Positions 1 through 13,937 of a stretch of DNA of 13,937 nt are shown in pieces. A program made the position numbers and the translations under genes. The notes below the pieces were generated by a model that saw nothing but the letters and a program-made list of their open reading frames with translations, was not told where the DNA came from and searched no databases. Source of the stretch: a virus (lineage: Duplodnaviria > Heunggongvirae > Uroviricota > Caudoviricetes); IMG/VR virus record IMGVR_UViG_2703718836_000006, one strand, 5' to 3'. Each line of letters starts with the position of its first letter. The stretch's first letter is position 1.

Positions 1-1
1 A

Positions 2-1972
2 GTAAGTTGGCACCATTACCAAACCTTTGAAGAATATAGGCAGTTAGGTTATGCATGTCAAATTAAAAAATATCAGTCTTATGAAGAAGCACATAAGGAA
101 TTATTTAATGGCTTCTTTAGCGTCGATTCAACTAAAGAAAGGTTGATTAAAGATTATAATACTTTCACAGATTCAATTGTAAAAATTCACTCACCTACTG
201 CAACTTATTCCTACATAAATTCAAAATATTACTTAAATGGTGTTATTGGCGAAGCTAATGTTGTTACGGAAATATTAGAGAGAATACAACATAGGCGTCC
301 AATTCTGTTTTTGATTGAGGCTGCAGCCGGTTTTGGAAAGACTTGCACGGCGTATGAATTATTGAGGGAGATTATAGTTAACAATATAGGGAAAATACCA
401 TTATTTTCAGAACTATCAAGGAATAGGCAAGCAAAAATATTCAGGTATGTACTATTAGATGAAATTGATAGAAGTTTTCCTTTGTTAAGCTCAGCCTTAG
501 TAAGGAATGAAATAAGAGCAGGAAATGTACCAGTTATACTTGACGGGTTTGATGAACTATTGCATGAAAGTACAAACGGAATTGAAAATAATTATGAAAA
601 AACAGAGCCAATGCTGGAAACAATAAGTGAGCTTCTAACTGATAGTGCAAAAGTGGTTTTGACAACTCGAAGAACAGCTATATTTGACGGAGATGAATTC
701 CATCAGTGGATAGCATCACATCAAGAAGATTTTGATGTGATAAGAATAAGAATTCATGAACCACAAATTGAAGACTGGCTTCCAGGTCAACGTTTAGATG
801 AAATTTCATCGACAGGATTTCCTCTTAACAAATTATCAAACCCTGTACTGCTATCATTTCTAAGATGCATCGACGACACCGACTTTAATAAAGTTATAAG
901 CGACCCAACAACTATAGTGAGGAAGTATTTTGATTCAATGCTTGAGCGAGAAAGAAAAAGACAAGATTTATTAATGTCTATTGAAGATCAATATACTATA
1001 CTAAAAATAATAGCTGACGACATGGTCGAGGGTAACTACACATCTGAGTCTAGAGAGTATATATCGTTAGTCATAACTGAAAAGAATCAACAACTCTTGG
1101 AGGCTACAAGAAAGCTTTATACTGTAGATGAAAGACCAACTACTGACGAATTAGTTAATAAATTAGCATCGCATGCTCTATTAGATCGGTCAGGCTCAGA
1201 AAACCAAGGTATTGGATTTGTTAATGAATTTGTTCTTGGTAATTTTGTTTCTGAAAATATTATTAATGATAAGTCAAATGAATGGATTGGTGATAAACGT
1301 TTTATAGAACCAGCAGTGCAATCTTATATGCCGAGGATCGATGATGAAAAAGAATTACTTTGGCATAGCTTAGAGTTTGCTTTATATTTTATGTCAGGTA
1401 ATGATAAAATCCTTTATAGTCATTTGCTTATAGGAAAAGTTCCATTAGATTTAAAAAATGATAGTGTTGAGCAATTGTCTATATCAAAACTTTCTTTAGG
1501 CGATATAAATATAATACATGATACTATCTTTGTTGATTGTTCGTTTTTTAGCAGCATATTTACCTGTGGTAATTATAAAAACGTTACATTCGTGAACTGT
1601 TCTTTTATAGATTGTAGTTTTAACGAATTAAGTGGTAGGGAAGATATTTATTTTTTGGGATGTGAATGTGACAATGATGCTATTAATAAAAAATCTGTCG
1701 AGATAAACAGTGAAAATGATCACGATATTACAGATTGTGATATTTACATCTTAGAGAAGTTCTGTCCCAGAGGGAGTGTTAGCTATCATAAGCATCGGCC
1801 TATAAAAGGCTTATGTTCTAACAACAATCAATTTCAGTTAAGTGAAATACTCCATTCTTTAGATAAATTGAGGAAAGACGGTCTTTTACTTACGCCAGAC
1901 AAGCGTTCGTTCCTTGAACTTAACATGGCAAGAATATCAGAGATTAAAGCAATTCTTGGGAGGAATTTCTGA
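2..1972 (+). CDS. NACHT-type STAND P-loop NTPase, probably 5'-truncated by the window edge; C-terminal Cys-rich repeat region
   Basis: ORF track gives 143..1972 (609 aa), but the frame has no stop between nt 2 and 143 and TTG143 directly abuts a purine run with no spacer, so the true start is probably upstream of the window. Motifs read from the translation: Walker A 'EAAAGFGKT', Walker B 'VPVILDGFDEL' (hhhhDGhDE, the NACHT signature), sensor-1-like 'VVLTTRR'. C-terminal 5-residue periodic repeat FVDCS/FTCGN/FVNCS/FIDCS. Confidence 0.8.
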   Translation, partial: VSWHHYQTFEEYRQLGYACQIKKYQSYEEAHKELFNGFFSVDSTKERLIKDYNTFTDSIVKIHSPTATYSYINSKYYLNGVIGEANVVTEILERIQHRRPILFLIEAAAGFGKTCTAYELLREIIVNNIGKIPLFSELSRNRQAKIFRYVLLDEIDRSFPLLSSALVRNEIRAGNVPVILDGFDELLHESTNGIENNYEKTEPMLETISELLTDSAKVVLTTRRTAIFDGDEFHQWIASHQEDFDVIRIRIHEPQIEDWLPGQRLDEISSTGFPLNKLSNPVLLSFLRCIDDTDFNKVISDPTTIVRKYFDSMLERERKRQDLLMSIEDQYTILKIIADDMVEGNYTSESREYISLVITEKNQQLLEATRKLYTVDERPTTDELVNKLASHALLDRSGSENQGIGFVNEFVLGNFVSENIINDKSNEWIGDKRFIEPAVQSYMPRIDDEKELLWHSLEFALYFMSGNDKILYSHLLIGKVPLDLKNDSVEQLSISKLSLGDINIIHDTIFVDCSFFSSIFTCGNYKNVTFVNCSFIDCSFNELSGREDIYFLGCECDNDAINKKSVEINSENDHDITDCDIYILEKFCPRGSVSYHKHRPIKGLCSNNNQFQLSEILHSLDKLRKDGLLLTPDKRSFLELNMARISEIKAILGRNF

Positions 1973-2877
1973 TGTATAACGGGAATGAATTGCGAATTAT
2001 TCAAAGTTTGCAAAAAGATATAGAAGATGAACTTAATCGTATTGGATTACTTTATCGTTTTTTTTCGAGGACAAAATCAGAAAGCTCAATAATTAAGAAA
2101 TATGAAAAAGAGCCTAATAAATACTCAGAGGATGGTAAAAAAATTCAAGACTTATTTGGGGTTAGGATAATATTATATTTTCCTGATGATTTATTTATTG
2201 CTCAAAAAACACTGGAGAAATTATTCGAAATTGAATCTAAAACCGTAGACGAAACCACGGCTAATCTCTTTGCGGCAACTCGATGCAATTACGTCTTTAA
2301 GTTACCAGAAGTATTATCAAATGATAGTGTCTTATTAAAGAAATATTCTTATATTGATACTACTTTTGAAGTCCAATTTAGAACTATTTTATCTGAAGGA
2401 TGGCATGAAGTTGAGCATGATCTACGCTATAAGTGCAAAGAGGATTGGGTTGAGCATAATGACCTTAGTCGCGCGCTGAATGGAATTTACGCCTCTTTGG
2501 AAACATCTGATTGGGGAATAATGAAGTTATTTGAGGATTTAGCATATAGAAATTATAAGTCAAGCGCATGGTCCGCTATGCTAAGAAATAAATTAAGATT
2601 GAGAATGGACGATAAGCTTGATGAAAAGATAATTTCAATAATTAATGAGAAAGAGCTTGGTAAAAAGTTTTATAGAATTGACAGAGATCGTTTGTTATCG
2701 TTAATGTTAGATTATAATATTGATATACCAATTAATCTTAATAATATAATTTACCTTTGTAATTATTTTTTCATAAAATCTACGGAGCTTCAGGATATAG
2801 CCCCTGCTTTAATAATGAAAAAGCTTACAGATGCTGATGAAAAATTCAATAAAAATACTATTTTAGCATCTAAATAA
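1972..2877 (+). CDS. RelA/SpoT-like nucleotidyltransferase (small alarmone synthetase / toxSAS-like)
   Basis: 301-aa ORF; its ATG overlaps the upstream TGA by 1 nt (TGATG), implying translational coupling. Synthetase-domain motifs in order: 'SRTKSESSIIKK' (R-x-K-S...S-I...K), 'DLFGVRIILYFPDD' (D-x-x-G-x-R), 'EVQFRTILSEGWHEVEHDLRYK' (E-V-Q-[IF]-R-T...W...E-H...Y-K). No hydrolase (HD) domain seen. Confidence 0.75.
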   Translation: MYNGNELRIIQSLQKDIEDELNRIGLLYRFFSRTKSESSIIKKYEKEPNKYSEDGKKIQDLFGVRIILYFPDDLFIAQKTLEKLFEIESKTVDETTANLFAATRCNYVFKLPEVLSNDSVLLKKYSYIDTTFEVQFRTILSEGWHEVEHDLRYKCKEDWVEHNDLSRALNGIYASLETSDWGIMKLFEDLAYRNYKSSAWSAMLRNKLRLRMDDKLDEKIISIINEKELGKKFYRIDRDRLLSLMLDYNIDIPINLNNIIYLCNYFFIKSTELQDIAPALIMKKLTDADEKFNKNTILASK

Positions 2878-2893
2878 TAACTATCTCCGGCTA

Positions 2894-2925
2894 TTAAGTA
2901 GGCCTTGTATTTTAGGCCTACTTAA
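2894..2925 (+). terminator. Perfect 11-bp inverted repeat (TTAAGTAGGCC / GGCCTACTTAA, 10-nt loop) 17 nt after the RelA/SpoT-like stop; putative terminator or protein-binding site
   Basis: Read directly from sequence. No clean T-tract follows on either strand, so intrinsic-terminator status is uncertain. Confidence 0.35.
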
Positions 2926-3160
2926 AAAGTTTCATTATGTGAAGTGATGATGATAGCAAATCTGATATCTTTATGGTTGGATGCGAGAAAATATTTTTAT
3001 CCCGACACAACAACTGGTAATGATAGAAAATTTAAACCCAAAAATGCTACAGTAGCCTCAGCTCACAAACGGAGTATAAAGTGGCGGTTACTCTTTAGTG
3101 GGAATACTGTAGATAGTTGATAAACTGGGCTGGATTTTCTTTTCTAACCGAAGGGAAGAA

Positions 3161-3222
3161 AAGCAAGGGGAACCCAAAGAAACAAGCGCAGCGGCTTCGT
3201 AGGGTTAGCCCTTGCTTCTTTT
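3161..3222. terminator. Long imperfect hairpin (AAGCAAGGG ... CCCTTGCTT with inner AACCC/GGGTT pairing) followed by CTTTT; possible bidirectional terminator or structured RNA
   Basis: 9-bp outer stem 3161-3169 / 3209-3217 plus inner 5-bp stem 3171-3175 / 3202-3206; T-rich tract after the 3' arm on the plus strand. Confidence 0.3.
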
Positions 3223-3395
3223 ATAATTGGCATTATTCATTCAAGAACAATAGGATCTTCGCTTGTACAAGCGAAGCTATAATAAAAAATCAATTAATTA
3301 TTTTAAAAGTATTAAGCAAGAGCCTATTGACATTCGTAAAATAAAAGTTATTTTTAATGTATGCCATAAATAAAAAGTTTTATGTCATATGTATC

Positions 3396-3439
3396 CTGCA
3401 CTATGTGCAGTTAATGTGCCACTTGTCCCATATATGGGA
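3396..3439. promoter_or_regulatory. Two closely spaced palindromes (CTGCAC-TAT-GTGCAG at 3396-3410; TCCCATATATGGGA at 3426-3439) in the coding-poor spacer; candidate operator sites
   Basis: Perfect dyad symmetry read from sequence; AT-rich surroundings; no convincing ORF nearby. Confidence 0.25.
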
Positions 3440-3929
3440 ATATTGGAAAGGTTACTTTGTTTTGAAGTAGCCTTTCGTCCTTCAATATTCACGATTACTT
3501 ATTGCTATTACCAAGTCCAGTCGAATCGAAGAACATCTTTTATCTGAAACGACTCCTAATACCAGGTTGAAGCCACAATATCTCTCGCATAAGTAGACCA
3601 AAGAAAAATTATGATATTAACTATGTGATTTTTTTTAGTGTTAAGTTGAATAATTATATACTGGAGAGTTTTCTGTACACTACCAATTGCTGGTTCATCT
3701 GTTCTGCCGCTGATGTTTCTGACTAATCTCCCGGTGACACAGAACTGTCCCTCTCTACCAGCCTTTATTCGACTCAATGTCCGGCTGCTGATACGCAGTT
3801 ATCCCTTCGTATCAATGACTGACTCTTAAACGCAATGCTTTGGTTGCTGGCGTATCTGACAGCTTCTTCGGCGTGAAGGTCGTTGTGTAAGTATACTTCT
3901 TGGTTTATTTAGGCTATATAAAACCATGA

Positions 3930-4826
3930 CTATGACTGGCTGTTTTCAGTAAGAGTCTTATCATCCAAAGAATTTATTCTAGAAATTCTTTTTAACTCAT
4001 TAAGATAATCAACCTCGTTTTCTAAGAACCAATGAAGAACTTTAGAGTTGCCAAGTAATTTATTAATATATGACTGGATTATAACGAATTTCAACATATC
4101 TGAACCATACTCGGTTTGAAGTTTTTTCGTTTCTTCCGAAGTTGTTGCCATTTCTTGTTCCAGACGAAGTATGGTTTTTTTTATGTCCTTTTTATAGGGA
4201 GTGTTTTTCCCTTTATTTACTATCATCGATGACGGTGTTGCATCCAAGATGCTCATTGCAAATTTTTTACTATAATTATCAAAATTAATCATTGTACCGA
4301 CTGCTTCAATTTGACGAATTGGCTTCATTTTCCTCAAAACGTCAAATGTAGCCTTAGGTATAGGTTTATCAGAAAGTTTCGCAATTACACTTGGATCTAT
4401 GCCGTTCATCACATTAGCTTTATCTTTTATGGCATCAACAGATATGCCCAAAGCAGCACTAAGTTTTTCAATTGATACTTTTGCCAGAGACTTAATTATC
4501 ATTCTATGTTCTTCAACTACATTTATATGATTCACTTGTTTGTTAGGAGTGAAAGCATCATCTATGCTCGAAAGTATACATGGAGCTTTTTCTATATCTA
4601 AGTCTTTTAAAGCCTCAACCCTTAAATGGCCATCAAGTATCTTAGTGACATCTTTATCTTTGTCATAGAATACTATTATTGGTTCAATAATACCCAAGCT
4701 TTCGATAGAGGTAACTATTTGATGATATTTATGGCTTCGCTTTACGTTTTCTAATAATTCCTTAGATGGAATTAACTTATTAGTTTCCAGGTAAATAAAA
4801 TTTTTGCCAAAACGTATCTGAATCAT
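3930..4826 (-). CDS. ParB/Srx-like N-terminal domain protein with central HTH (paralog of the upstream gene)
   Basis: 298-aa ORF; ParB-N-like segment 'IVFYDKDKDVTKILDGHLRVEAL' (DGHxR at the box-II position), probable HTH 'VSIEKLSAALGISVDAIKDK'. Start overlaps the upstream stop by 4 nt (ATGA). Low GC. Confidence 0.7.
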   Translation of the reverse strand: MIQIRFGKNFIYLETNKLIPSKELLENVKRSHKYHQIVTSIESLGIIEPIIVFYDKDKDVTKILDGHLRVEALKDLDIEKAPCILSSIDDAFTPNKQVNHINVVEEHRMIIKSLAKVSIEKLSAALGISVDAIKDKANVMNGIDPSVIAKLSDKPIPKATFDVLRKMKPIRQIEAVGTMINFDNYSKKFAMSILDATPSSMIVNKGKNTPYKKDIKKTILRLEQEMATTSEETKKLQTEYGSDMLKFVIIQSYINKLLGNSKVLHWFLENEVDYLNELKRISRINSLDDKTLTENSQS

Positions 4827-5719
4827 TTTGATACCTCTTTGTTTACTGGGTTTAATATCTGAGATGGTAGTTCTGAAAGATTCTCTTGTTCAAGTATATT
4901 TTGAAAGCTTTTATTCATCATTATGATGTTAAAAATCTCATTTATTATTAGTAGATTGGTTTTTATAAATTTCGAGTTGTTATAAACAGATTTATGTTCA
5001 GCGATACTATTTTCATAAAGCTCAATCAACTCCTCTGCAGTCATCCTTTTTGATGGTTTGTGATAATAAAATCCGGCTGCTTTTGCACCTTTATTCCCAA
5101 CTGTTCTTTGATTTAGAATGTATTTTATCTTTATAATGTCCCGACTTTTTATTAATTTTTTATCATATGCTTCGGTAAGAATATCTTGTGCTTCCTCAGT
5201 TTCACATCTTGCAAATTGCACTGCGAGATACAGAGGCAAATTACCCCGTTCGACTGCTGAGAGAAGTTTATGCTCTCCCTTATCAAGAAGCATATTAATA
5301 CTGCTCACCCAGTTCGATGAATATCCAGTAATCTCACTTATTTCGGAGTCTGAAAGTCCTCTGATTTTCATGTCTTTAATCACCTGTAATAACTCATTAG
5401 AACGTGGTCTTCTCCTTGCAATGTTTTCAACTAAACTCATAACGTAAGCATCTTCTTCTGATACATCTCTTATAATTGCTGGAATAATAGTTTCACCTAA
5501 TGCAACAAGAGCCTCTATTCTCCCTTGACCACAAATTAAAGCATATTTGAAATCGTCTTCATCAATAGCTCTTACGCTTATAGGCTTGCTTAATCCTCTT
5601 TTTTTTATGCTTTCCTTTATTTCTTCATGCACTACCTTATTTCTTGTTCGTGGGTTAAGAAATTTTATTTTTGCAATCTCAATTTGAATTATTGGGAATT
5701 CATTTTTTTCAGGCAGCAT
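4823..5719 (-). CDS. ParB/Srx-like N-terminal domain protein with HTH
   Basis: 298-aa ORF; 'ISVRAIDEDDFKYALICGQGRIEAL' aligns with the ParB box-II region (GERRxRA), 'LVENIARR' with the ParB ENLQR-type motif, HTH 'LSDSEISEITGYSSNWVSS'. Overlaps the recombinase 3' end by 11 nt. Confidence 0.7.
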   Translation of the reverse strand: MLPEKNEFPIIQIEIAKIKFLNPRTRNKVVHEEIKESIKKRGLSKPISVRAIDEDDFKYALICGQGRIEALVALGETIIPAIIRDVSEEDAYVMSLVENIARRRPRSNELLQVIKDMKIRGLSDSEISEITGYSSNWVSSINMLLDKGEHKLLSAVERGNLPLYLAVQFARCETEEAQDILTEAYDKKLIKSRDIIKIKYILNQRTVGNKGAKAAGFYYHKPSKRMTAEELIELYENSIAEHKSVYNNSKFIKTNLLIINEIFNIIMMNKSFQNILEQENLSELPSQILNPVNKEVSK

Positions 5720-7271
5720 ATAGTTCCCTCACTTTCATGCGAGTAATAATTTGTAGAAATTTATCAAGATTATCAAATCTATAGAGATCTAACCGAATGT
5801 TGTTTGTTTCCATCATACACATTTTACTATATTCGTTTTCAATCTTTGGTATGATATAAAAATCAAGAGGTGAAATATTTTGTGAATTCATTCGTATAAC
5901 AATTGTTATGTCTGCTTTCTGTGAGTTATCAAACCGGACTTTCCATCTAAGTTTACCTGATTTCATATGTATGCATTTAGTAACAAGGACGGAAATTAAA
6001 AACTCATCATTGATGTAAAGCATTGGGTAATATTTATACTCGTCTATATGACAGTTACTTTTTAATATTTCGCCCTTAAAATCCTCAATTATCTCTGAGT
6101 AAAATGATCTTAGTGCTTCATTTATTTGGAGATGGCTGTAATCATGTTCTGGCTTATAACCAATCAAAGTATATGCTCTTAAAAGACCACCAAATCGGGT
6201 TCTATAAACAGAAGATGAAGGGCCTGTATCATCTTCATCAATGATAAAGCCTGATAGTTTTCCATTAGATTCTAATTTTTCTTTTAGCTTTTCTAATAGA
6301 TCTTCATTAGTCAAATGAATGGATCGGAGCTGAATTATTTCTTGAGCTTTATTATATTTTTTCTTTGAAATAATTGGTTTATATGCCTTGTCACATCTAA
6401 TCCATTCATGTTTGGGGTTTTTTACAAGCTTACTTTTTAGTTTAGATGAGGTTTTGTTATATATGTTGTTTCCAATATATTTTTCATTTGTCAAAATTTG
6501 ATGTATTTTTGCACGAGTCCATGATGTTCCATTTTCTGCAGGTATGCTCTGTTCATTTAATCTCTCAGCAATAATGAATTCTGGGACGTTACTATCTATA
6601 AAGAGATCATAGATTCTATTTACAATTTTTATTTCATTTTTTGGTCCCGGAATTAATATTACCCTATCTGTTTGAATACTCTTTCTTTTGCGGAAATTCA
6701 ATATTTCTTTAGCTATGCCATTTTCGTCTACTAAAAGACGTCTCAGCCCATAACCAGCCATACCGCCTTGATGATAACCAAGCTTTATTAAATTTACTTG
6801 CCCTATAAATACCTTTTCAGATAGATTCCTGCTGTGATATGCAGCACTTGATCTTTTTATATTCAGTATAACAGAGGACTCTAAAGGGAAATCTTTAGTG
6901 GGTATAGGTTCGGAACAATATATAAGATCTACACCATTTCTTTCAAATAGAAAGGAATAATATGCAGCTTCATCACTATTTTGAAAACGACCAAAACGGC
7001 TCACATCATAAAATAATACAGCCTGTATATCTATTTTCTTTTGTTCTACATCGCTAAGTAACTGCTGCAAAGAATGCCTGCCTACGATACTGACTCCGCT
7101 CTTACCTGCATCATCGTAGGTATAAGCGATTTCCATATTGTTCTTTTCAGCATAATCTTTGATATATTCAGACTGATTATGTAAAGAATATTGCTGATGG
7201 TCGGTAGACATCCTCAAGTACTGTGCGACCCTAACTCTATGATTTTTTTCATTTCCGCTAGCCATGCACAA
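5709..7271 (-). CDS. Large serine recombinase (resolvase/invertase catalytic domain + recombinase domain; no obvious Cys4 zinc ribbon)
   Basis: 520-aa ORF; N-terminal 'VAQYLRMSTDHQ' (catalytic Ser in the R-x-S-T context), 'DDAGKSG', 'DVSRFGR'; recombinase-domain 'LGYHQGGMAGYGLRR' and 'WTRAKIHQILTNEKYIGN'. C-terminal ~200 aa unassigned. Confidence 0.85.
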   Translation of the reverse strand: MCMASGNEKNHRVRVAQYLRMSTDHQQYSLHNQSEYIKDYAEKNNMEIAYTYDDAGKSGVSIVGRHSLQQLLSDVEQKKIDIQAVLFYDVSRFGRFQNSDEAAYYSFLFERNGVDLIYCSEPIPTKDFPLESSVILNIKRSSAAYHSRNLSEKVFIGQVNLIKLGYHQGGMAGYGLRRLLVDENGIAKEILNFRKRKSIQTDRVILIPGPKNEIKIVNRIYDLFIDSNVPEFIIAERLNEQSIPAENGTSWTRAKIHQILTNEKYIGNNIYNKTSSKLKSKLVKNPKHEWIRCDKAYKPIISKKKYNKAQEIIQLRSIHLTNEDLLEKLKEKLESNGKLSGFIIDEDDTGPSSSVYRTRFGGLLRAYTLIGYKPEHDYSHLQINEALRSFYSEIIEDFKGEILKSNCHIDEYKYYPMLYINDEFLISVLVTKCIHMKSGKLRWKVRFDNSQKADITIVIRMNSQNISPLDFYIIPKIENEYSKMCMMETNNIRLDLYRFDNLDKFLQIITRMKVRELYAA

Positions 7272-7547
7272 AACCTCATGGATGATTCAATACAATGTAG
7301 AGGATAAAATTGATCAAATTTTAACCGAATTCAACTGTTTTATCATTGATTAGAGCGAATTTGGTAGTTCTTCGAGGTGTATGATAATCGAGAAGAGATG
7401 TGAATTATTTAGCTGATATGACCGACAGCTTTCGTTATGTGGCCTCAAGGTACCCATTTGTAAATGGCTATGCTTAGTCCACATAGGTTAATGGTGTGAT
7501 CATTAATTCTTCAAATAAATCAAGATAGTTAACCCATCATGGAAGAG

Positions 7548-8777
7548 TTATGCGGCAATAACTTTGTATTTTTGAGACGAAACATAGTCACTCCACCATT
7601 GCATGAGAACCACACGTTCTGTGAGATACTCTGCACGATTGTAGGCTGCAATTATTTCATCTTTTTTCGAGTGGGCAAGGGCGGCTTCTAAGACATCAGT
7701 TCTAAACTTGCCACACTCCTCAGCCGCCGTTCTAGCGATTGATCGCATACCATGAGCTACAAGCTCACCTCCGAAGCCCATACGGATTATAGCCGCATTA
7801 GCTGTTTGTTCATGCATGTGATTGAGTGGAGCTTTGATACTGGGAAAAACCCACTCTCTATGCCCGCTGATGGCTTTCATTGAATCCAAGACGCGCAAAG
7901 ATTCTTTGCTCAGTGGAACTTTGTGAGGCTTCTTCATTTTCATAAACTCCGCCGGGATGTTCCACATGCTGGTTTCTATATCAATATCTGACCATCTTGT
8001 GCGAACAGCTTCACCAGGGCGAACCCATGTGAGAAGTTGCCACTCAATCAGTAGCCTTGTTTCTAAACGGATAGAAGCATTGTTTAGAGCAACCAGGAAG
8101 CGGGGGAGTTCGGAAGGGGGTAATGCTGGCATATTCTGTTTTTTTGGCTTGCTGAACCGTTGCCCCAGGTTGTCAGCCGGATTGAATTCTATGAGTTCTT
8201 CTGTTGCTGCATAGCGGAAAATTTCATTCAGGCGGGATATGACGCGGCGAAGTGTTTCAAGGACACCTCGTTTTTCTATGGGGTCTAAATGCTGTTTAAG
8301 CATTTTAGGGCGAATCTCCTTAATGGGGGTATCACCCAACGTTGGAAAGATATTTCTCTCTAGGCTTCGCCAGATGTCGTTAGCATGATCCTGGGAGATG
8401 CCTGACGTTTTGACTTTCTCATCAAGCCACTTCTTGGCTACTGCTTGAAATGTATGTTCCGTTGCATCCTTAAGGGCATTGGCTTTGTGGGTGTTATGAA
8501 CTTGTGGGTCTATACCATTTGCAAGCAACGACAAGTACTCATCACGTAAAGCTCGTGCCTTCGCAAGTGTAAGGTGAGGATAGGTTCCTAAGCTCACCTT
8601 AGTTCGCTTTTTGGTCACAGGCACTGCATATCTGAAATACCAATTTTTCTTTCCTCCCTTCGCTAAGGGGGCGATTCGCAGGAGCAAACCATCGCCGTCA
8701 AAAAGGTTAACCTCTTTCTCGGCAGGTTTGGTGCTTTTGATTTCAGTGTCAGTGAGCTTCTTAGCGATTTTTGCCAT
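7548..8777 (-). CDS. int: P4-type tyrosine integrase (N-terminal arm-binding domain + catalytic domain)
   Basis: ORF track extends to 8921, but the conserved N-terminus 'MAKIAKKLTDTEIKSTKPAEKEVNLFDGDGLLLRIAP...WYFRY...LGTYP...LAKAR...GIDP' begins at the ATG at 8777 (alternative in-frame ATG at 8793). A start at 8921 would run the ORF across the terminator at 8876-8909, so it is rejected. Catalytic region has 'AHGMRSIARTAA' and 'AALAHS...YNRAEY'. Confidence 0.85.
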   Translation of the reverse strand: MAKIAKKLTDTEIKSTKPAEKEVNLFDGDGLLLRIAPLAKGGKKNWYFRYAVPVTKKRTKVSLGTYPHLTLAKARALRDEYLSLLANGIDPQVHNTHKANALKDATEHTFQAVAKKWLDEKVKTSGISQDHANDIWRSLERNIFPTLGDTPIKEIRPKMLKQHLDPIEKRGVLETLRRVISRLNEIFRYAATEELIEFNPADNLGQRFSKPKKQNMPALPPSELPRFLVALNNASIRLETRLLIEWQLLTWVRPGEAVRTRWSDIDIETSMWNIPAEFMKMKKPHKVPLSKESLRVLDSMKAISGHREWVFPSIKAPLNHMHEQTANAAIIRMGFGGELVAHGMRSIARTAAEECGKFRTDVLEAALAHSKKDEIIAAYNRAEYLTERVVLMQWWSDYVSSQKYKVIAA

Positions 8778-8818
8778 GTTTGGGACCCTCATGTTTTGGA
8801 CCCTTTGTGTTGGGTCCC
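8775..8818. promoter_or_regulatory. Tandem copies of a GGGWCCC-containing motif (CATGTTTGGGACCC / CATGTTTTGGACCC / TGTTGGGTCCC) overlapping the integrase start
   Basis: Read from sequence; GGGACCC and GGGTCCC are self-complementary. Both candidate int start codons lie inside repeat units. Confidence 0.4.
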
Positions 8819-8875
8819 AAAAAGGGTGCCATAACGAGTAGATTCTAGCAATTCTCGGTAGACTACTATAGACGT

Positions 8876-8909
8876 AAAAAAGCCCGCAAGGCTGGTTCCA
8901 TGCGGGCTT
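8876..8909 (-). terminator. Rho-independent terminator on the minus strand (stem AGCCCGCA/TGCGGGCT, 12-nt loop, then T5)
   Basis: Perfect 8-bp GC-rich stem 8881-8888 / 8901-8908; the minus strand reads stem-loop followed by TTTTT (plus-strand AAAAA at 8876-8880). Lies between the tmRNA 3' fragment and the int start. Confidence 0.6.
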
Positions 8910-8943
8910 GATAGACTTCACTGAACTTCAATATATCAAAAAT

Positions 8944-8973
8944 TGGTGGAGCTGGCGGGAGTTGAACCCGCGT
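8944..8973 (-). other. ssrA: 3'-terminal ~30 nt of a tmRNA (ssrA) gene (T-arm + acceptor 3' strand + CCA): attachment-site core copy, not an intact gene
   Basis: Minus strand reads ACGCGGGTTCAACTCCCGCCAGCTCCACCA: T-stem GCGGG/CCCGC with a 7-nt TTCAACT loop, acceptor strand CAGCTCC, discriminator A, CCA. This matches my recollection of the enterobacterial tmRNA 3' end. The sequence 5' of it (8974-9100, minus sense) is AT-rich and has no tRNA-like or tmRNA-like structure. Confidence 0.65.
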
Positions 8974-9114
8974 ATGATTGAATTTATGTGTATGAAAAAT
9001 AAAGTTTAATTTCTTCCTGCAATCTTTGCGTATCAAAAACGTGCACTTCGTCATTATTTTATAGTAATTTATTTTGCTCATTTTTGACTAGACAGATTTG
9101 GCTGAGGTGTCGCC

Positions 9115-10038
9115 ATGGAACTGTTGATTTCCCCAAAAAGATTGTGCCTTTATAATGATTCTGATCGCCGTGTTACAGCTAAGTTTTTGAACTCAGTTGA
9201 TAACACCCTTGCGAGAGCATCTGGACAAGTGGTTATAGACTTTTCGACAGTAGAATATGCAGGTGCTGCAGCTAGCGTAAGGTTGTTTGCTATCATCAGT
9301 AGGGCTTATTTTATGGCATTCGGCACAAGTAGTCTTCGATTCATTTGGCCGAAAAAAGAAAATAATCCGTATGGGCATCGATATATTGTTGGGACGGGGT
9401 TATCGATTGCTCTAATGGCAAATACAGTTGATAAATTAGATGTTCTTACTAAGGAACGCAGGTACTTTCAGTCTGCTGTGGAACCGTATGAACATTGGGC
9501 TAAAACGATGGAATTTATTGATTCAAAAGCAATTCTCACATTTGAGCAATATCTTTTGGTCTCCTCAGCCCTTAGTGAGGCAATGCTGAATGTTTCATAT
9601 CATGCATATGAACATCCAGACTTTGCTGGTGCTATAGAGCATATGCAAGGGAAACGATGGTGGCAGAGTTGTTGGTACAACCCTGACACAGACAAGGTTG
9701 TCTTTATTATTTATGATCTTGGGCTTGGCATACATAAATCATTTACTTCAGCCTCTCCGTTGTTTACTGGGTATGACGACGTGACATCTGTGTCAACAGC
9801 CCTGACAGGAGGACAGTCCAGATATGTTAACGCTGGACGTGGTAATGGTTCTGAGGATATAAAGAGACCTATAGGGTCTGGCTGTGCGAATTCAGAATCA
9901 CTTTTGGTGTTCACAGGGAATGTTAAGTACAGCTATAATTCAAGAAATGAGGTTCCCAAATGCGAGTGGATACCTGAGTACATGCCGGGAACATTGATTG
10001 AATGGTCATTAGTTCCGAGGAGAGGAGAAGATGGTTAA
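9115..10038 (+). CDS. GHKL-family ATPase/kinase-like protein (RsbW/SpoIIAB-type HATPase domain in the C-terminal half; N-terminal half unassigned)
   Basis: 307-aa ORF with RBS GAGGT 6 nt upstream of the ATG. N-box 'LSEAMLNVSYHAYEH' (E...N...HA), G1 'IIYDLGLGI' (DxGxG), Gly-rich 'GRGNGSED', C-terminal 'MPGTLIEWSL'. Confidence 0.65.
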   Translation: MELLISPKRLCLYNDSDRRVTAKFLNSVDNTLARASGQVVIDFSTVEYAGAAASVRLFAIISRAYFMAFGTSSLRFIWPKKENNPYGHRYIVGTGLSIALMANTVDKLDVLTKERRYFQSAVEPYEHWAKTMEFIDSKAILTFEQYLLVSSALSEAMLNVSYHAYEHPDFAGAIEHMQGKRWWQSCWYNPDTDKVVFIIYDLGLGIHKSFTSASPLFTGYDDVTSVSTALTGGQSRYVNAGRGNGSEDIKRPIGSGCANSESLLVFTGNVKYSYNSRNEVPKCEWIPEYMPGTLIEWSLVPRRGEDG

Positions 10039-10372
10039 CATCGTCATAGCAAGGGATTTCTCAAAGATGCCATTTGGAAGGTTCAAGTCTGACAGCCCGA
10101 ACAGTGCTGAGCGTTTTCGTAAGGACTTTCTGGTTCCTGCATTAAAATCTGGTGAGCGTGAGGTTGTCGTAGATTTTACGGGTATAAATCATGGGATTGG
10201 TTCTTCGTTTCTAGAGGAGGCCTTTGGAGGGCTTGTTAGGAAGGAAGGTGTACCTAAGGCTGACATTAAGGCAAAACTAATTATAAAAAGTGATTTGCCG
10301 TTCTATAAAGATCAAATTTTTAGATATATTGAAATGGCTAATCCAGAAAGGAAGCCTTTCCAAAGGAGTTGA
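10031..10372 (+). CDS. Small STAS-like (anti-sigma-antagonist-fold, DUF4325-like) protein, translationally coupled to the GHKL gene
   Basis: 113-aa ORF; start overlaps the upstream stop by 8 nt; AGGAG immediately upstream. 'EVVVDFTGINHGIGSSFLEEAFGGL' resembles STAS-like domains that partner RsbW-type kinases. Confidence 0.55.
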   Translation: MVNIVIARDFSKMPFGRFKSDSPNSAERFRKDFLVPALKSGEREVVVDFTGINHGIGSSFLEEAFGGLVRKEGVPKADIKAKLIIKSDLPFYKDQIFRYIEMANPERKPFQRS

Positions 10373-10373
10373 T

Positions 10374-11003
10374 TTGAACACCGTTGATATTAAGGACACC
10401 CTTGCAGGGGTGTCCACTTACGCATGGATGTTTAGTGTTGTGAGTATTATCTTAGTGTTTATTGGATGGTTTGTTACTTACAATAATTCACTGAAGATTG
10501 CTACTCGCTCTGAATCTAAATCGATTATAGATGCGATTGCTAAAATTTTAAACGAAATATCAGATTTGTCTCTGGATTACTGGGTTAATAAGTCAACACC
10601 ACCAGATTCTAATCCATTTAAGAAAAAAAATTTTAAGAACTCTAATGGATTGCATACTCAGTCGGCGAAAATATATTTAACGGCAATTCATGGAAAAGCC
10701 ATACAAATAAATAAATACATTAATCTTCTCGATGAGAGGGGGATAAAAATAACAATTTCGTATTTTTCTAATATTATAGATGAAGCTACTATGGAATGTG
10801 AGAAATCATATTGTTTTAATAAGTCATATAGGGTTTTTCGCGCTCAGAATGTATCTAGTGCTTGTGTCGATTTCATAATGCATTTATATGATTCTTTTCA
10901 AAAAAATCATCCGCCACGTAAGCCTGTATATGTATTGAAAACATTAAAACAATTGGATTGTTACTTGGATAAATGGCATAATGAATTATGTGGGCGGCAA
11001 TAA
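10374..11003 (+). CDS. Hypothetical membrane-anchored protein (single N-terminal TM helix 'MFSVVSIILVFIGWFVTY'); start uncertain
   Basis: ORF track gives 10290 (a GTG, overlapping the upstream gene by 83 nt). I favour TTG at 10374, preceded by AAGGAG at 10363-10368; ATG at 10428 is another option. Low GC. No recognisable catalytic motif. Confidence 0.45.
   Translation: MNTVDIKDTLAGVSTYAWMFSVVSIILVFIGWFVTYNNSLKIATRSESKSIIDAIAKILNEISDLSLDYWVNKSTPPDSNPFKKKNFKNSNGLHTQSAKIYLTAIHGKAIQINKYINLLDERGIKITISYFSNIIDEATMECEKSYCFNKSYRVFRAQNVSSACVDFIMHLYDSFQKNHPPRKPVYVLKTLKQLDCYLDKWHNELCGRQ
10394..10415. other. Perfect 8-bp inverted repeat GGACACCC-ttgcag-GGGTGTCC
   Basis: Read from sequence; GC-rich dyad in AT-rich context just after the STAS-like gene stop. 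Confidence 0.3.
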
Positions 11004-11011
11004 ATGCCGCC
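10993..11011. terminator. GC-rich hairpin GGCGGCA-ataaa-TGCCGCC between convergent genes; putative bidirectional terminator or att-proximal structure
   Basis: Perfect 7-bp stem spanning the stop of the plus-strand gene (11001-11003), 5 nt from the stop of the minus-strand integrase (11016-11018). No strong T-tract. Confidence 0.35.
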
Positions 11012-11015
11012 ATAA

Positions 11016-12182
11016 TCATTGTATAATGTATTTGATGGAGCTTTTTCCGTCGTATTCTTTGAGATATCGACCATAGTGCCTGAAAAGCATCTCAGGCCCT
11101 TTATGCCCCATTTGAGCTGCAAGCCAAAACAGGTTCGCTCCCCGGCTGATATGGCGGGTGGCGAATGTATGCCTGGTTTGATATGGGTTTCTGTAACGAA
11201 TACCTGCTTTTCGTAATGTTGGCACCCATGCTTTTTTCCTTATTGCATCAGCACTTGCCCAAGGCTTATTGGTCTTTGGGTCTTCAAAGACAGTAGCATC
11301 CTTCATGAATGTAAATGGCTTCTGATTTATCAGCGCCAACATTGCCTCTTCTGTCAGTTCAACTTTACGAGTACCTGCTTTTGTCTTTGTCCCTTTGATA
11401 ACACCGACAACACTTGCGCTCTGGACATGGGCAGTTTTTCCAACAAAGTCGATATCACGCCATCTAAGGGCACATAATTCAGAACTACGCAGGCCTGTAT
11501 GTATAGCGAACCGGAACAGATTCTCCCATTGTTTGTTTCCGGCTGCTGCTAGTAATGCATCAACTTCTGTTGGTGATAGCGGATCAACCACGTAGCAACT
11601 TTCTGCTTCTGACTTATCACTTTGGTAGCGCGAAGCAGTTACCAACGATACGGGGTTAATTTGAAGTACCCCATCGGTTACGGCTTCATCAAGTGCTGAC
11701 CGCAGGAAAGATAACTGGTTGCGAATTGTTTTTAAGGTCGTTTTCTGGCTTTGAATCCACGCTTTCAGGATTGCTGGTGTTAATTCACTTGCAGGGCAAA
11801 TGTGGAGTGAGGCTAACGCACTACGGCATTTTTTATAACCACCAATCGTTGAGGGTGAGAGTTTTCTCGTTTCGCAGATTTCAAGATATTCGTCCAGGTA
11901 CATTTTTACCGTTTTGCCTGCAGCAGCATTACCAAAAATTTTCAAACGAGCAGAACGGGGAAAATATTCCGCATAAATGAATGTTCCCCTTTCGATCTTA
12001 TTATGAATTTCGCCGAGTGTGCGCTCGGCGTATTTAATGTTCTTTGGTGTTACTTCCAGATTAGAAAGAGGCTCACGACATTTAACTCCTTTGTAGGTGA
12101 AAGTTATATTGATCGTTTCGCCCTGGCGGTGTTTCCTGATTGTTACGCCGCGCGGTAGTTTGAGCAGTTTTGTCTGGCCCAT
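11016..12182 (-). CDS. int: Phage-type tyrosine integrase (lambda-family catalytic domain with N-terminal arm-binding domain)
   Basis: 388-aa ORF; catalytic residues in context: 'AIHTGLRSSELCAL' (Arg), 'RHTFATRHISRGANL' (H-x-x-R), 'LFRHYGRY' (Tyr nucleophile). GC content visibly higher than the cargo. Confidence 0.9.
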   Translation of the reverse strand: MGQTKLLKLPRGVTIRKHRQGETINITFTYKGVKCREPLSNLEVTPKNIKYAERTLGEIHNKIERGTFIYAEYFPRSARLKIFGNAAAGKTVKMYLDEYLEICETRKLSPSTIGGYKKCRSALASLHICPASELTPAILKAWIQSQKTTLKTIRNQLSFLRSALDEAVTDGVLQINPVSLVTASRYQSDKSEAESCYVVDPLSPTEVDALLAAAGNKQWENLFRFAIHTGLRSSELCALRWRDIDFVGKTAHVQSASVVGVIKGTKTKAGTRKVELTEEAMLALINQKPFTFMKDATVFEDPKTNKPWASADAIRKKAWVPTLRKAGIRYRNPYQTRHTFATRHISRGANLFWLAAQMGHKGPEMLFRHYGRYLKEYDGKSSIKYIIQ

Positions 12183-12361
12183 TTTGCAACCTCACTAAGA
12201 TCAATCCACCTCTCCTTAACGCCTTCAACCTTTAAAACCTGAACACCTTCACGCCAAACACCGCGCTGTACACGTTTGTTTATTGCTTCAGGAGTTTCGC
12301 CAGTTTCTTTGCAATAAGTTGAGATAGGAACACAATCGAGGTTCAGCATATGTTTCTCCAC
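12143..12361 (-). CDS. xis: Excisionase (Xis)-like small DNA-binding protein
   Basis: 72-aa ORF immediately upstream of, and overlapping by 40 nt, the integrase, the usual xis-int arrangement. 'TPEAINKRVQRGVWREG...EGVKERWIDLSEV' resembles lambda-type Xis winged-helix sequences. Confidence 0.6.
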   Translation of the reverse strand: MEKHMLNLDCVPISTYCKETGETPEAINKRVQRGVWREGVQVLKVEGVKERWIDLSEVAKWARQNCSNYRAA

Positions 12362-12408
12362 TTAGCCCGCTGCACACGGGCAGTAATATCAAATTCCAGT
12401 CCTGATAA

Positions 12409-12624
12409 TTAATTTTGTTCTCTGGTTGCTACGTGTTTTATTGGCCTGATGCTGTCCAGGAGCAGACGGCGGCGCATGTTTGGCGCGCCCCAACGGTAAC
12501 CAGTCTTTTTGTCGTAGGATTCACAACGTCCGGCAACCCAGGACGTTTCAGTAGAATGTAATTTCATCCGCTTTTCACCGTCTCGGGTGATAACAATTCC
12601 TGTATGAGTTTTTATCACGCTCAT
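12409..12624 (-). CDS. Hypothetical prophage early-region protein
   Basis: 71-aa ORF, co-directional, overlapping the upstream gene by 4 nt; no recognisable motif. Confidence 0.45.
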   Translation of the reverse strand: MSVIKTHTGIVITRDGEKRMKLHSTETSWVAGRCESYDKKTGYRWGAPNMRRRLLLDSIRPIKHVATREQN

Positions 12625-12983
12625 TTCTTAGTCTCCGGTGCTTTCGGCATTACTGCCCAGTGAGTGATATTGACGTTTTCAAGGTCCCCGACCTGAAATG
12701 TCCACTGCCATTCTCCGGTTTCTTTTTGCCCCCATGTGTACCAGAGAGAACGCCAGCCAATCAGCCAGCCTTCTCCATTAGCATCAAATAACAGAACACT
12801 TTCATTTGCTGGCGGCAGTTCAGCTGACACTGGTATTACTTTGTTTTCCAGTGCTGCACATTTAGCTTCAAGCGCATCGAATTTACGTACCAGGTACTCA
12901 GCATTTGTTTCGTTCACTTTCAGATCTCGCGGTACACATCTCCCACGAAGAAACCCTTCCATTTCGAAAACATTCATGCGCAT
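12621..12983 (-). CDS. DUF551-like phage protein
   Basis: 120-aa ORF; C-terminal 'GEWQWTFQVGDLENVNITHWAVMPKAP' matches the conserved Trp ... (V/I)THW-x-x-MP tail I associate with DUF551 prophage proteins. Confidence 0.5.
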   Translation of the reverse strand: MRMNVFEMEGFLRGRCVPRDLKVNETNAEYLVRKFDALEAKCAALENKVIPVSAELPPANESVLLFDANGEGWLIGWRSLWYTWGQKETGEWQWTFQVGDLENVNITHWAVMPKAPETKK

Positions 12984-13537
12984 TTGCGTAACTCCGATAA
13001 CTCGTTAAAACGTTCCATAAACATCCCGTAGGCATGACCTGGCGACAGTGGAATAACTTTGAACATCTCTGTTGCCGGGATACCTTCCAATACAGGCCAG
13101 AAAGAGCCATCATCAAGTCCGAGATCGCGGCGTTCGGTTGCCAGCATAATGAGATCGGCATATTTCACTGGCGTGCTCATAACAGGAGGTAACCCGTATT
13201 TCTCACGGATTACGGCGTCTATTTTTTCTTCCATCCGTTTATAGTCAGGAAGAAGTCGTTTCAGTGGTGCGGGGATGTCCTGGCAATACGCTTCTGTTGC
13301 ATCATGCATTAACGCTTCAAAAGCAAATTCCTGCGGCACCAGTTGGCTGCAAAGCACTGCATGCTGGGCGACACTGTAGAAGTGTGATAGATGTCCTGCA
13401 AAGCGACAGATATTTGAAAGGGAAACCGCGATATCGTTAATCACGATGTCGTCTTTATTTATCTTGTCATAATAAAAATGCTTCCCGGAAAAAGTTTTAA
13501 TAAATGACATTTTGTTCTCCACGTATATGCGCTGCAC
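12974..13537 (-). CDS. HD-domain phosphohydrolase (YfbR/YfdR-like putative 5'-deoxynucleotidase)
   Basis: 187-aa ORF; HD motifs 'FYSVAQHAVL' (His) and 'EALMHDATEAY' (His-Asp), plus a later Asp in 'RRDLGLDDG'. Confidence 0.65.
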   Translation of the reverse strand: MQRIYVENKMSFIKTFSGKHFYYDKINKDDIVINDIAVSLSNICRFAGHLSHFYSVAQHAVLCSQLVPQEFAFEALMHDATEAYCQDIPAPLKRLLPDYKRMEEKIDAVIREKYGLPPVMSTPVKYADLIMLATERRDLGLDDGSFWPVLEGIPATEMFKVIPLSPGHAYGMFMERFNELSELRKCA

Positions 13538-13565
13538 CGCGCTGAATTCGGGTAAAAGGAAGCCC

Positions 13566-13883
13566 TCACCATCCGGCGATTATTGAGTAAATTATGTTTC
13601 CATAAATGCCCCCGCAGGGGCATTTGCAGGCATCGATAAAGCAGCGGGTGCCCTCATCTGCAAGATCTTTAGAATAACGGGTAAAGTCATCGATGCTGGC
13701 AGTGGAAAGCGCACCACGGAAACGGAAGCGATTTAAATTAAATTTTTCCAGATCATGAATGCGGAAATTCTCAGGCAATGCCACAGCATCGGCACCAATC
13801 TTACTGATAATTTCATTAACACCCTGAGCAGAAATAAGGGCATGGATTTGATTAATTGCGGTTGCGTCTAAGTTCTGAGACAT
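13566..13883 (-). CDS. Hypothetical prophage protein
   Basis: 105-aa ORF co-directional with the prophage early genes; no recognisable motif. Confidence 0.45.
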
Positions 13884-13937
13884 AATAAGTCCTCACTATA
13901 TAAAGATATTCAGTGATGAGATAAATAATCAGTTAAT

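Follow-up and report, generated by a model that had tools for sequence, protein, structure and literature searches.

An orphan 30-nt tmRNA 3′ fragment very probably marks the junction of a prophage and a P4-type island stacked at ssrA

Introduction

No integration target in enterobacteria is used more heavily than the tmRNA gene ssrA. What does a short piece of its 3′ end signify on a stretch of DNA that carries two integrase genes and no intact tmRNA gene? We analysed a viral sequence record of 13,937 nt (IMGVR_UViG_2703718836_000006; the whole stretch is called the window here), for which a first-pass annotation, made from the sequence alone, had reported a tmRNA 3′ core of about 30 nt on the minus strand, followed by a terminator and a P4-type integrase. 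That annotation proposed a tandem or decayed array of islands at ssrA or, alternatively, an att repeat of the right-hand element. The window corresponds to a draft contig of 13.9 kb in its full length; ssrA is thus absent from view for a trivial reason, and neither the far end of the phage nor the island's distal repeat falls within it. The features on which the analysis rests are collected in Table 1.

Table 1 Features of the window, in order of position
Feature	Position	Strand	Basis or remark
Rest of P4-type island	20–7547	mixed	Pfam; RefSeq annotation of NCTC9100 locus L003
NACHT-domain gene, interrupted by contig end	to 1972	+	Pfam
RelA/SpoT-domain gene	1972–2877	+	Pfam
IS3 remnant	about 3745–3856		
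Two ParB/RepB-like genes	3930–5719	−	Pfam
Large serine recombinase	5709–7271	−	Pfam
int1, P4-type (CP4-57 IntA-like) tyrosine integrase, 409 aa, intact	7548–8777	−	Pfam
Intrinsic terminator	8876–8909	−	fold and terminator scan; supplied by P4-type island
Orphan ssrA 3′ copy (30 nt), att core	8944–8973	−	exact match, single copy
Prophage att P arm and intergenic region upstream of cargo operon	8974–9114	−	A+T-rich
Candidate arm-type site GATACGCA	9027–9034		−61 from core; paired-site alignment
Candidate arm-type site GTGCACGT	9039–9046		−72 from core; paired-site alignment
Predicted GHKL-fold, SpoIIAB-like protein	9115–10038	+	motifs, AlphaFold model
DUF4325 STAS-like protein	10031–10372	+	Pfam, E = 8e-15
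Protein with hydrophobic N-terminal segment, probably membrane-anchored	10374–11003	+	
int2, tyrosine integrase of lambda-like architecture, Arm-DNA-bind_2 N-terminal domain	11016–12182	−	Pfam
Putative excisionase (xis), overlapping int2 start	12143–12361	−	88% identity to LLS gp33
Prophage early genes (yfdS-like, yfdR-like 5′-deoxynucleotidase, others)	12409–13937	−	M37H RefSeq annotation

Results and discussion

The fragment is an exact copy of the ssrA 3′ end

The sequence ACGCGGGTTCAACTCCCGCCAGCTCCACCA has a single exact occurrence in the window, at 8944–8973 on the minus strand, and 200 shuffles yielded 0 matches with up to 3 mismatches. It equals, with no mismatch, the final 30 nt of the annotated ssrA of the E. 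coli strains NCTC9100, M37H and K-12, so the core noticed earlier is a perfect copy of the end of E. coli ssrA. The fragment comprises the T arm, the 3′ strand of the acceptor stem and ACCA, is oriented in the same direction as both integrase genes, int1 and int2, and loses its identity to ssrA precisely at 8973. We rejected the window as a carrier of a full tmRNA gene: ARAGORN returned 0 tRNA or tmRNA genes in the window, and the Rfam tmRNA model RF00023 scored 20.4 bits, below its gathering score of 47, with an alignment that is good at the 3′ end only and places 39 nt where the model has 308 internal positions. These searches bear out the earlier statement that no intact tmRNA is present, and they show that 8974–9300 is not a divergent but complete tmRNA. 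Within the window, no second copy of the core was found with up to 5 errors or as sub-cores of 14–20 nt.

Behind the core, the terminator and the P4-type integrase follow as described by the first-pass annotation, with the start of int1 revised to ATG at 8777, which is likelier than GTG at 8921. The hairpin (8880–8909, minus strand) has a G+C-rich stem of 9 + 2 bp and is followed by a T6 tract ending at 8876; the 106-nt stretch containing the terminator folds with an energy of −33 kcal/mol (z = −3.9), and a simple terminator scan also called the site at 8876–8909. A matching hairpin stands right after intact ssrA in both NCTC9100 and K-12. The outer stem of the terminator is invariant and the inner pair is changed on both sides in M37H (GG/CC to AG/CT), and the motif is found at 120 or more loci (at least) in species-representative Enterobacterales genomes. 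As read from these alignments, the island terminator ends ssrA in phage-free genomes; in the window, only the orphan fragment precedes it.

A P4-type island on the left and a prophage on the right

To the left, positions 20–8973 recur with 100% identity in at least 11 complete E. coli genomes (NCTC9100, MRE162 and others), and all of these matches end at 8973. Beyond the equivalent position in NCTC9100, the sequence runs into annotated intact ssrA and smpB, and in island-only genomes int1 is located 167 nt past intact ssrA. The junction of ssrA, core and island is present in about 1266 of the 5426 complete E. coli genomes. The Int1 protein carries Arm-DNA-bind_3, Phage_int_M and Phage_integrase domains, all scoring over the Pfam cut-off. 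By integrase type and position, the left element is a CP4-57-like P4-integrase island whose integrase adjoins the ssrA 3′ end and is co-oriented with it. In K-12, CP4-57 lies directly behind ssrA, and the window island resembles it in placing a P4-type integrase about 170–200 nt downstream of ssrA in the same orientation and in supplying its own terminator. It differs from CP4-57 in its integrase, which is just 49% identical to K-12 IntA over the full length, and in its content of a serine recombinase gene, two ParB-like genes, and NACHT and RelA/SpoT genes. CGCCAGC-CCACCA is the imperfect distal repeat of CP4-57 type (PMC10107115, Table 1), which pairs with a short identity block, CGCCAGCTCCACCA; in NCTC9100, which carries the identical island, it is found at the far island end, at 24545–24557 of the locus sequence L005. 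The corresponding end of the window island lies beyond the contig.

To the right, strains 2A, D5 and elppa10 share about 99% identity with the window from 8942/8943, the 3′ edge of the core, to 12500. Int1 and Int2 are full-length proteins that their Pfam domains place in separate subfamilies. Int2 shares 92% identity with the integrase of Citrobacter phage PhiNP and 87% with its counterpart in Escherichia phage LLS. Experiments showed that PhiNP inserts itself into the final 25 bp of ssrA in E. coli K-12, restoring the gene (PMC6456863), and by analogy Int2 would be specific for the ssrA 3′ end. The gene overlapping the int2 start occupies the position of LLS gp33, for which the annotation is putative excisionase. 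The window shows about 5 kb of the prophage, whose early genes extend to the contig end; this early module is common to many prophages at other sites, which is probably why the assembly breaks there.

The gene order in LLS is xis, int, one cargo gene and then an annotated ‘tmRNA pseudogene’/attP, and the DNA behind ssrA in M37H matches the LLS P′ arm, a terminator included; the PhiNP record contains int and one cargo gene and ends at the core. In the same layout, the core of the window is located 2 kb downstream of int2, past the cargo and on the int-sense strand. Judged from these correspondences, the right element is a PhiNP/LLS-type ssrA-integrating prophage, sharing with both phages the order xis, int, cargo, attP and an attP that bears the ssrA 3′ end. 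It differs from PhiNP in its block of identity to E. coli ssrA (30–32 nt in the window versus 25 nt in PhiNP), and the cargo differs in each case: a three-gene GHKL/STAS cassette in the window, one AAA ATPase in PhiNP and one hypothetical gene in LLS.

Both homologies break at the core

Island homology (20–8973) and prophage homology (8942–12500) overlap just in the 30–32 nt core. Genomes occupied by a single element exist for either side, with the island only (NCTC9100 and others) or the phage only (2A, which has the matching phage and cargo without the P4-type island), and their breakpoints lie at the core. M37H, the closest complete genome, has a junction equal to that of the window (97.5% identity over 5.5 kb). 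As the earlier tandem-array proposal implies, the core is repeated there: the second copy belongs to an intact ssrA 40.6 kb from the junction, at the other prophage end, and the two prophage ends carry a co-oriented direct repeat of 31 nt. The P arm–core–island junction, and with it the pairing of a PhiNP/LLS-type phage bearing GHKL/STAS cargo with this island variant, was found in only 7 of the 5426 complete E. coli genomes; an ssrA-containing probe matched in all 5426, and the best coverage of the window by any complete genome is at most 83%.

On the evidence of these breakpoints, 8944–8973 is an att core common to two elements. For the prophage on the right, the complete core is the int-proximal junction (P-O-B′); for the P4-type island on the left, that role falls to the last 14 nt of the core, CGCCAGCTCCACCA (8944–8957). 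The identity block for Int2 covers 25–32 nt starting at the T stem and that for Int1 covers the 13–14 nt of CGCCAGCTCCACCA; the stretches of core that the two integrases use appear to be nested. The tandem array and the right-hand att repeat had been offered as alternatives, and the breakpoints, taken together with M37H, 2A and NCTC9100, indicate that both hold and describe one structure.

Between the core and the plus-strand operon that begins at 9115, the G+C content is about 34–35%, in agreement with the AT-rich stretch leading into an operon that the first-pass annotation described. M37H has this P arm at 100% identity, and so does the phage-only strain 2A across the 60 nt that were compared. 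The two candidate arm-type sites, GTGCACGT and GATACGCA, are 11 nt apart, and GATACGCA has 2 copies in the window versus 0.26 expected. Paired sites at equal distances are seen in 12 phages and prophages, with a site sequence that varies by integrase clade; the four phage P arms have no 7-mer common to all, and the pairing becomes visible only after gapped alignment of the 12. We infer from this pairing that the sites are arm-type sites.

Proposed origin of the junction

The 30-nt fragment is very probably an att junction inside a tandem array at ssrA, in which two elements that target the ssrA 3′ end stand head to tail. Read in the ssrA sense (the minus strand of the window), the array would run from the prophage early genes through xis, int2, the cargo and the P arm into the 30-nt core, and from there into the CP4-57-like island with its terminator, int1, serine recombinase, ParB-like genes and more. 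In the proposed mechanism, Int2 would recombine the phage attP, which duplicates the T arm and 3′ end of ssrA, with the chromosomal equivalent. The phage copy would complete ssrA at the far prophage end, next to a phage-borne terminator, and the intact gene would then be followed by the phage P′ arm (CCACCAATCATGATTGG…). The displaced ssrA 3′ end would remain at the int2-proximal prophage end, and the window would represent this displaced end, still joined to the DNA that was formerly downstream of ssrA, namely the island terminator and int1. We infer the crossover positions, the order of insertion and the retention of an intact ssrA at the other end in the source genome. Since PhiNP lysogenises K-12 (PMC6456863) and K-12 has CP4-57 after ssrA, such lysogens should share the architecture of the window. 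With the orphan core now serving as the attL of the island, island excision might spare the functional ssrA. Excision of CP4-57 is reported to delete T357.

Decay, which the first-pass annotation had also raised, is not needed to account for the junction, both integrases being intact; a hint of prophage truncation comes from a draft contig (L136, GCA_030346215.1) that agrees with 12.9 kb of the window at 99.99% identity and is the only long contig with such a copy. Here the phage early region stops 10 kb from int2 at a clean joint (169/170), which connects a phage DUF968 gene to a 3′-truncated P4-type integrase of the tRNA-Phe type; elsewhere this integrase sits behind an orphan tRNA-Phe fragment, and the joint occurs in no complete E. 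coli genome. Given this truncation, the prophage may be a remnant in the lineage, and ssrA need not be one prophage length away. We regard it as a real possibility, though not the expected outcome, that the array is decayed in this sense, a truncated remnant of early region, xis, int2 and cargo having been rearranged onto other DNA as a fossil unable to excise. The joint about 10 kb beyond int2 argues for it; however, L136 is another assembly and the window ends short of the joint, the joint may be a draft misassembly, int2, xis, P arm and core are intact, and a full-length prophage with an equal end exists in M37H.

The stacked structure could also have been built in reverse order, with the prophage arriving first, as in 2A, and the island entering later into the orphan core and not into the functional ssrA. 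Phage-only genomes exist, the orphan core contains the full 14-nt target of the P4-type integrase, and the end structure is identical, so that sequence does not distinguish the two orders. Nevertheless, we consider prophage-first insertion unlikely: an island at ssrA is far commoner (1266 genomes versus a handful with the phage, of 5426), island-only genomes match the island portion of the window at 100% identity, and PhiNP is known to lysogenise K-12, which already has CP4-57 at ssrA (PMC6456863).

Somewhat more improbable still is a second role of the junction as an sRNA locus, from which a transcript resembling the Salmonella sRNA IsrM would extend from the A+T-rich P arm through the fragment to the island terminator. 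The Rfam IsrM model (RF02763) matches 8876–9006 on the minus strand with 42.3 bits (E = 4.5e-9), and in strain LT2 IsrM is located upstream of STM2763, co-oriented with it and about 66 kb from smpB/ssrA (PMC2330248), with both Fels-2 and a P4-integrase element listed at ssrA (PMC10107115, Table 1). However, the score is well under the gathering score of 376, and the alignment consists chiefly of about 55 nt of spacer and terminator, with 253 internal positions of the 329-nt model missing. Only the model ends align, and we rejected membership of the IsrM family. A promoter scan of 8600–9300 gave no sigma-70-like promoter on either strand, neither for the cargo nor for a junction transcript. The similarity is accounted for by a common island terminator: window positions 8876–8930 share homology with the spacer and terminator at the IsrM 3′ end, and IsrM in the ssrA-linked island region of LT2 is closely followed by a gene of the same orientation, but the body of IsrM is missing at the window junction. 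The IsrM literature searched makes no mention of ssrA or an integrase.

It is scarcely credible that the fragment is a decay pseudogene left by a resident ssrA after loss or replacement of its 5′ 333 nt, with no att duplication: just the 3′ 30 nt are present and the sequence upstream has no tmRNA likeness, but both homology breakpoints fall on the core edges, the P arm–core junction coexists with an intact ssrA in the M37H chromosome, the free phage LLS has an equal arrangement, and the ssrA probe found its target in every complete E. coli genome.

Read as two elements stacked at the tmRNA gene, the att junction is of a known, ordinary, textbook kind. The regenerated target with its displaced fragment, and tandem arrays, have been laid out as a principle with Islander (PMC4383910). 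The window resembles such tandem tDNA arrays in that the target is split, restored by the element and left with a displaced 3′ fragment at the other end, and we see no difference in kind. Among 120 listed loci with core and terminator in species-representative Enterobacterales, 13 are orphans, and 10 of these 13 have an int2-family integrase (67–90% identity) within 5 kb upstream. An orphan tDNA fragment on a short draft contig is not to be taken as gene loss; for annotation, the 30-nt fragment gives the exact boundary between the PhiNP/LLS-type prophage and the CP4-57-like island.

The GHKL/STAS cassette as phage cargo

A boundary at the 30-nt fragment assigns the neighbouring GHKL/STAS cassette to the int–attP cargo slot of the phage. 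The operon at 9115–11003 had been called unrelated by the first-pass annotation; by position and by comparison with related elements, it is instead cargo of the right-hand phage in a variable slot, which in related prophages and phages is occupied by DarT/NADAR, an AAA ATPase with Dam, an AAA ATPase alone, or one small gene.

The first protein of the cassette matched Pfam HATPase_c_2 with E = 0.006, under the cut-off, and a PDB sequence search returned nothing for it. Its N-box and G-box residues E155, N159, H163, D201, G203 and G243-N-G245 do not vary among 38 homologues, in which G205 is conserved to at least 90%, and its AlphaFold model (pLDDT 87.9) matches the GHKL domains of Hsp90, GyrB and SpoIIAB. 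By its N box (E..N..H), its G1 box (DxGxG) and its modelled fold, we assign the protein to the GHKL (Bergerat-fold), SpoIIAB-like type. Neither this protein nor the DUF4325 protein matched a PADLOC or NCBIfam family, and the third cargo protein gave a weak match to the PADLOC ‘2TM effector’ (E = 0.0056).

The int–attP slot is a sensible hunting ground for new defence genes. We tentatively entertain the idea, without considering it the probable one, that the cassette is an uncharacterised, new phage-defence or superinfection-exclusion system; its mode of action may be partner switching. The order of the three genes is kept, at 37–50% identity, in Yersinia prophages and in Pseudoalteromonas.

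The ssrA fragment as an att junction

Judged by sequence, the 30-nt fragment of ssrA, the tmRNA gene, is an att junction within a tandem array at ssrA, a known kind of feature. The annotated ssrA genes of E. coli NCTC9100, M37H and K-12 all end in exactly this 30-nt core, which comprises the T arm, the acceptor stem's 3′ strand and the terminal ACCA; position 8973 is the exact limit of ssrA identity. Allowing up to three mismatches, no match to the core arose in any shuffled sequence. ARAGORN called neither a tRNA nor a tmRNA gene anywhere in the window, and the Rfam tmRNA model reached 20.4 bits (gathering score, 47) with a good alignment at the 3′ end only, which bears out the first-pass annotation that no intact tmRNA is present. 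Its order of tmRNA 3′ end, terminator and P4-type integrase was correct in every particular except the integrase start codon, the probable start being the ATG at 8777.

Two homologies meet at the core. Window positions 20–8973 match at least 11 complete E. coli genomes with 100% identity, and all such matches stop at 8973; beyond the equivalent position, NCTC9100 continues with its annotated intact ssrA and then smpB. Positions 8942/8943–12500 match strains 2A, D5 and elppa10 (~99%), the match starting at the 3′ edge of the core, and strain 2A carries this right-hand DNA without the P4-type island, with the chromosome's own flank after the core. By these alignments, the window is two independently distributed elements that share only a 30–32-nt core, and an overlap of independent elements in the core alone is the signature of an att site.

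Strain M37H has the same junction, with 97.5% identity across 5.5 kb. To its right lies a ~40-kb prophage encoding regulatory, lysis, head and contractile-tail functions; at its far end an intact ssrA adjoins smpB, and the core forms a 31-nt direct repeat at both prophage ends, ~40.6 kb apart. The check for a second core copy and an intact ssrA at the locus thus finds both in this related genome. Together with the homology breakpoints at the core, the repeat beside intact ssrA supports the earlier reading of a tandem array or an att repeat of the right-hand element.

The core appears to hold nested targets, a 25–32-nt block from the T stem for the phage and the terminal 13–14 nt for the island, within which we infer the exact crossovers. 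Tandem arrays at tDNAs are an established category, and the nested targets fit the T-loop and T/acceptor-junction subsites known for tDNA integration (both PMC4383910).

The two elements and their att arms

The left-hand element is a CP4-57-like island; int1, its P4-type integrase, shares 49% identity with IntA from CP4-57, a cryptic prophage of K-12. The copy of an identical island in NCTC9100 spans ~20 kb and ends in the imperfect repeat CGCCAGC-CCACCA; CP4-57 and further ssrA-located elements with a P4 integrase have been described with this same one-base-deleted repeat (PMC10107115, Table 1). The serine recombinase and ParB/RepB-like genes may form a second module of the island, for recombination or maintenance, and the NACHT and RelA/SpoT gene pair, for which PADLOC gave only a weak match (PDC-S33), resembles a conflict system of two genes.

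On the right lies a phage of a known kind: its integrase, int2, shares 92% identity with the integrase of Citrobacter phage PhiNP and 87% with that of Escherichia phage LLS. The gene order in LLS is xis, int, a single cargo gene and then, in the depositors' annotation, a 'tmRNA pseudogene' and attP. On the 3′ side of the core, LLS matches the DNA after the intact ssrA in M37H, second terminator included, so the phage supplies the ssrA 3′ end plus a terminator. In experiments, PhiNP integrated into the final 25 bp of ssrA in E. coli K-12 and regenerated the gene (PMC6456863), and since CP4-57 directly follows ssrA in K-12, PhiNP lysogens should share the architecture of the window.

The stretch 8974–9114, initially described as AT-rich and leading to an unrelated operon, is the phage P arm, the att-site flank on this side of the core; the operon is phage cargo, so that 'unrelated' does not hold. 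Aligned P arms (n = 12) contain a pair of ~8-nt sites, spaced 11 nt apart and positioned −72 and −61 relative to the core, whose sequence varies by integrase clade (GAGCCGYA, ATGCACKT, GATACGCA) and whose distances are the same in 12 related phages and prophages; they look like candidate arm-type integrase sites. The P′ arm on the other side (~170 nt after the core, terminator included) is homologous to the chromosomal flank after the last att repeat in E. coli, and attP therefore shares ~200 nt, not 30 alone, with the unoccupied ssrA locus.

Features of the window and of compared loci (L numbers; L005, NCTC9100; L136, contig of GCA_030346215.1; L151, Br_178_kylling)
Feature	Position	Strand	Remarks
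NACHT-domain gene, then overlapping RelA/SpoT-domain gene	1-2877	+	Within P4-type island; NACHT gene cut by contig end
IS3 remnant	~3745-3856		
Large serine recombinase, then two overlapping ParB/RepB-like genes	3930-7271	-	Directly behind P4-type integrase
int1, intact	7548-8777	-	409 aa; Arm-DNA-bind_3, Phage_int_M, Phage_integrase (P4-type set)
G+C-rich hairpin, then T tract	8880-8909; T tract ending 8876	-	34 bases downstream of core
ssrA 3′-end core	8944-8973	-	ACGCGGGTTCAACTCCCGCCAGCTCCACCA; single occurrence in window
Paired P-arm sites	9039-9046; 9027-9034	-	GTGCACGT; GATACGCA
Three-gene cargo operon	9115-11003	+	Between P arm and int2
int2	11016-12182		Arm-DNA-bind_2, Phage_integrase
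Small ORF	12143-12361		Overlaps int2 start; 88% identical to putative excisionase of LLS
Distal island repeat	L005 24545-24557		
P′ arm/chromosomal flank homology	L002 18763-18930; L006 8093-8250; L005 ~24300-24545; L009 ~5830-6002		
Cargo slot	8974-11015; L004 11953-13420; L006 7177-8053; L007 7168-10014		P13-6, DarT/NADAR; 042, AAA ATPase + Dam methylase; PhiNP, AAA ATPase alone; LLS, one small hypothetical gene; several other genera, empty (~120 nt)
Joint and related integrase	L136 1-700; L151 3760-5250		

Order of insertion and possible decay

In the most likely mechanism, int2 would have catalysed recombination between the phage attP and the 3′ end of ssrA, and the phage copy would now complete ssrA. 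The displaced 3′ end would have stayed proximal to int2, still joined to its former downstream DNA, the island terminator and int1, and this orphan core, separated from the rest of ssrA, should still act as attR in phage excision and attL in island excision. Excision of the island would then change the orphan copy and spare the working ssrA. Insertion of the island at the orphan core of a prophage already in place would yield the same structure, but this reverse order is unlikely: the ssrA–core–island junction occurs in 1266 of 5426 complete genomes and the P arm–core–island junction in 7, frequencies that favour arrival of the island first.

Contig LONY01000037.1 (13,937 nt; assembly GCA_001575305.1) makes up the whole window, and both elements have their far ends outside it, so the absence of ssrA from it is uninformative. 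On the right, the contig stops within a phage early-gene module common to many prophages at other sites, and this wide distribution probably caused the assembly break. A 393-kb contig of another assembly (L136) is 99.99% identical to the window over 12.9 kb and has, ~10 kb past int2, a clean joint at 169/170, where the phage early region, there a DUF968 gene, gives way to a P4-type integrase gene of which only the truncated 3′ end is left. The same integrase gene stands in Br_178_kylling behind an orphan tRNA-Phe 3′ fragment, after another island's end, an arrangement that resembles a further tandem array, here at a phe-tRNA site. The joint, absent from all complete genomes searched, suggests a rearrangement or truncation in the window's lineage, in which the prophage may therefore be a remnant. 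If so, the array would be 'decayed', as first proposed, in part; the identity of the 30-nt fragment is unchanged.

A cargo slot between int and attP

Among the related prophages and phages compared, the slot between the int stop codon and the P arm is a cargo hotspot. The first cargo protein of the window has invariant GHKL N-box and G-box residues, and its confident structural model (pLDDT 87.9) matches the ATP-binding domains of Hsp90, GyrB and SpoIIAB; it is predicted to adopt a GHKL, SpoIIAB-like fold. The second is a DUF4325 STAS-like protein, and the third, with a hydrophobic N-terminal segment, is probably membrane-anchored. PADLOC and NCBIfam assigned the three proteins to no known defence family, apart from a weak PADLOC '2TM effector' match of the third. 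The cassette family is small (~149 relatives, all gammaproteobacterial and every one annotated 'hypothetical'), and the three-gene order is kept in Yersinia enterocolitica prophages and Pseudoalteromonas chromosomes. This uncharacterised cassette, a candidate defence or exclusion module, is the most interesting by-product of the analysis, the att junction itself being of low interest.

IsrM likeness and recurrence of the junction

On the minus strand, 8876–9006 scores 42 bits against the Rfam model for IsrM, a Salmonella sRNA. This is far short of the gathering score, and the match arises from homology between the 3′ spacer and terminator of IsrM and the terminator brought in behind ssrA by P4-type islands. 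IsrM may itself occupy an att junction within the ssrA array of LT2, a location that goes unmentioned in the IsrM papers checked.

Tandem arrays form an established category, at tDNAs generally and specifically at ssrA (Williams 2003). Scanning one genome per species for this terminator motif behind the 3′ end of ssrA yielded at least 120 loci in Enterobacterales, of which 97 had a tmRNA detected upstream and 13 were clear orphans. An int2-family integrase (67–90% identical) lies within 5 kb upstream in 10 of the 13 orphans, with identity blocks of 12–30 nt (24–30 nt in nine), so the arrangement is recurrent and ordinary.
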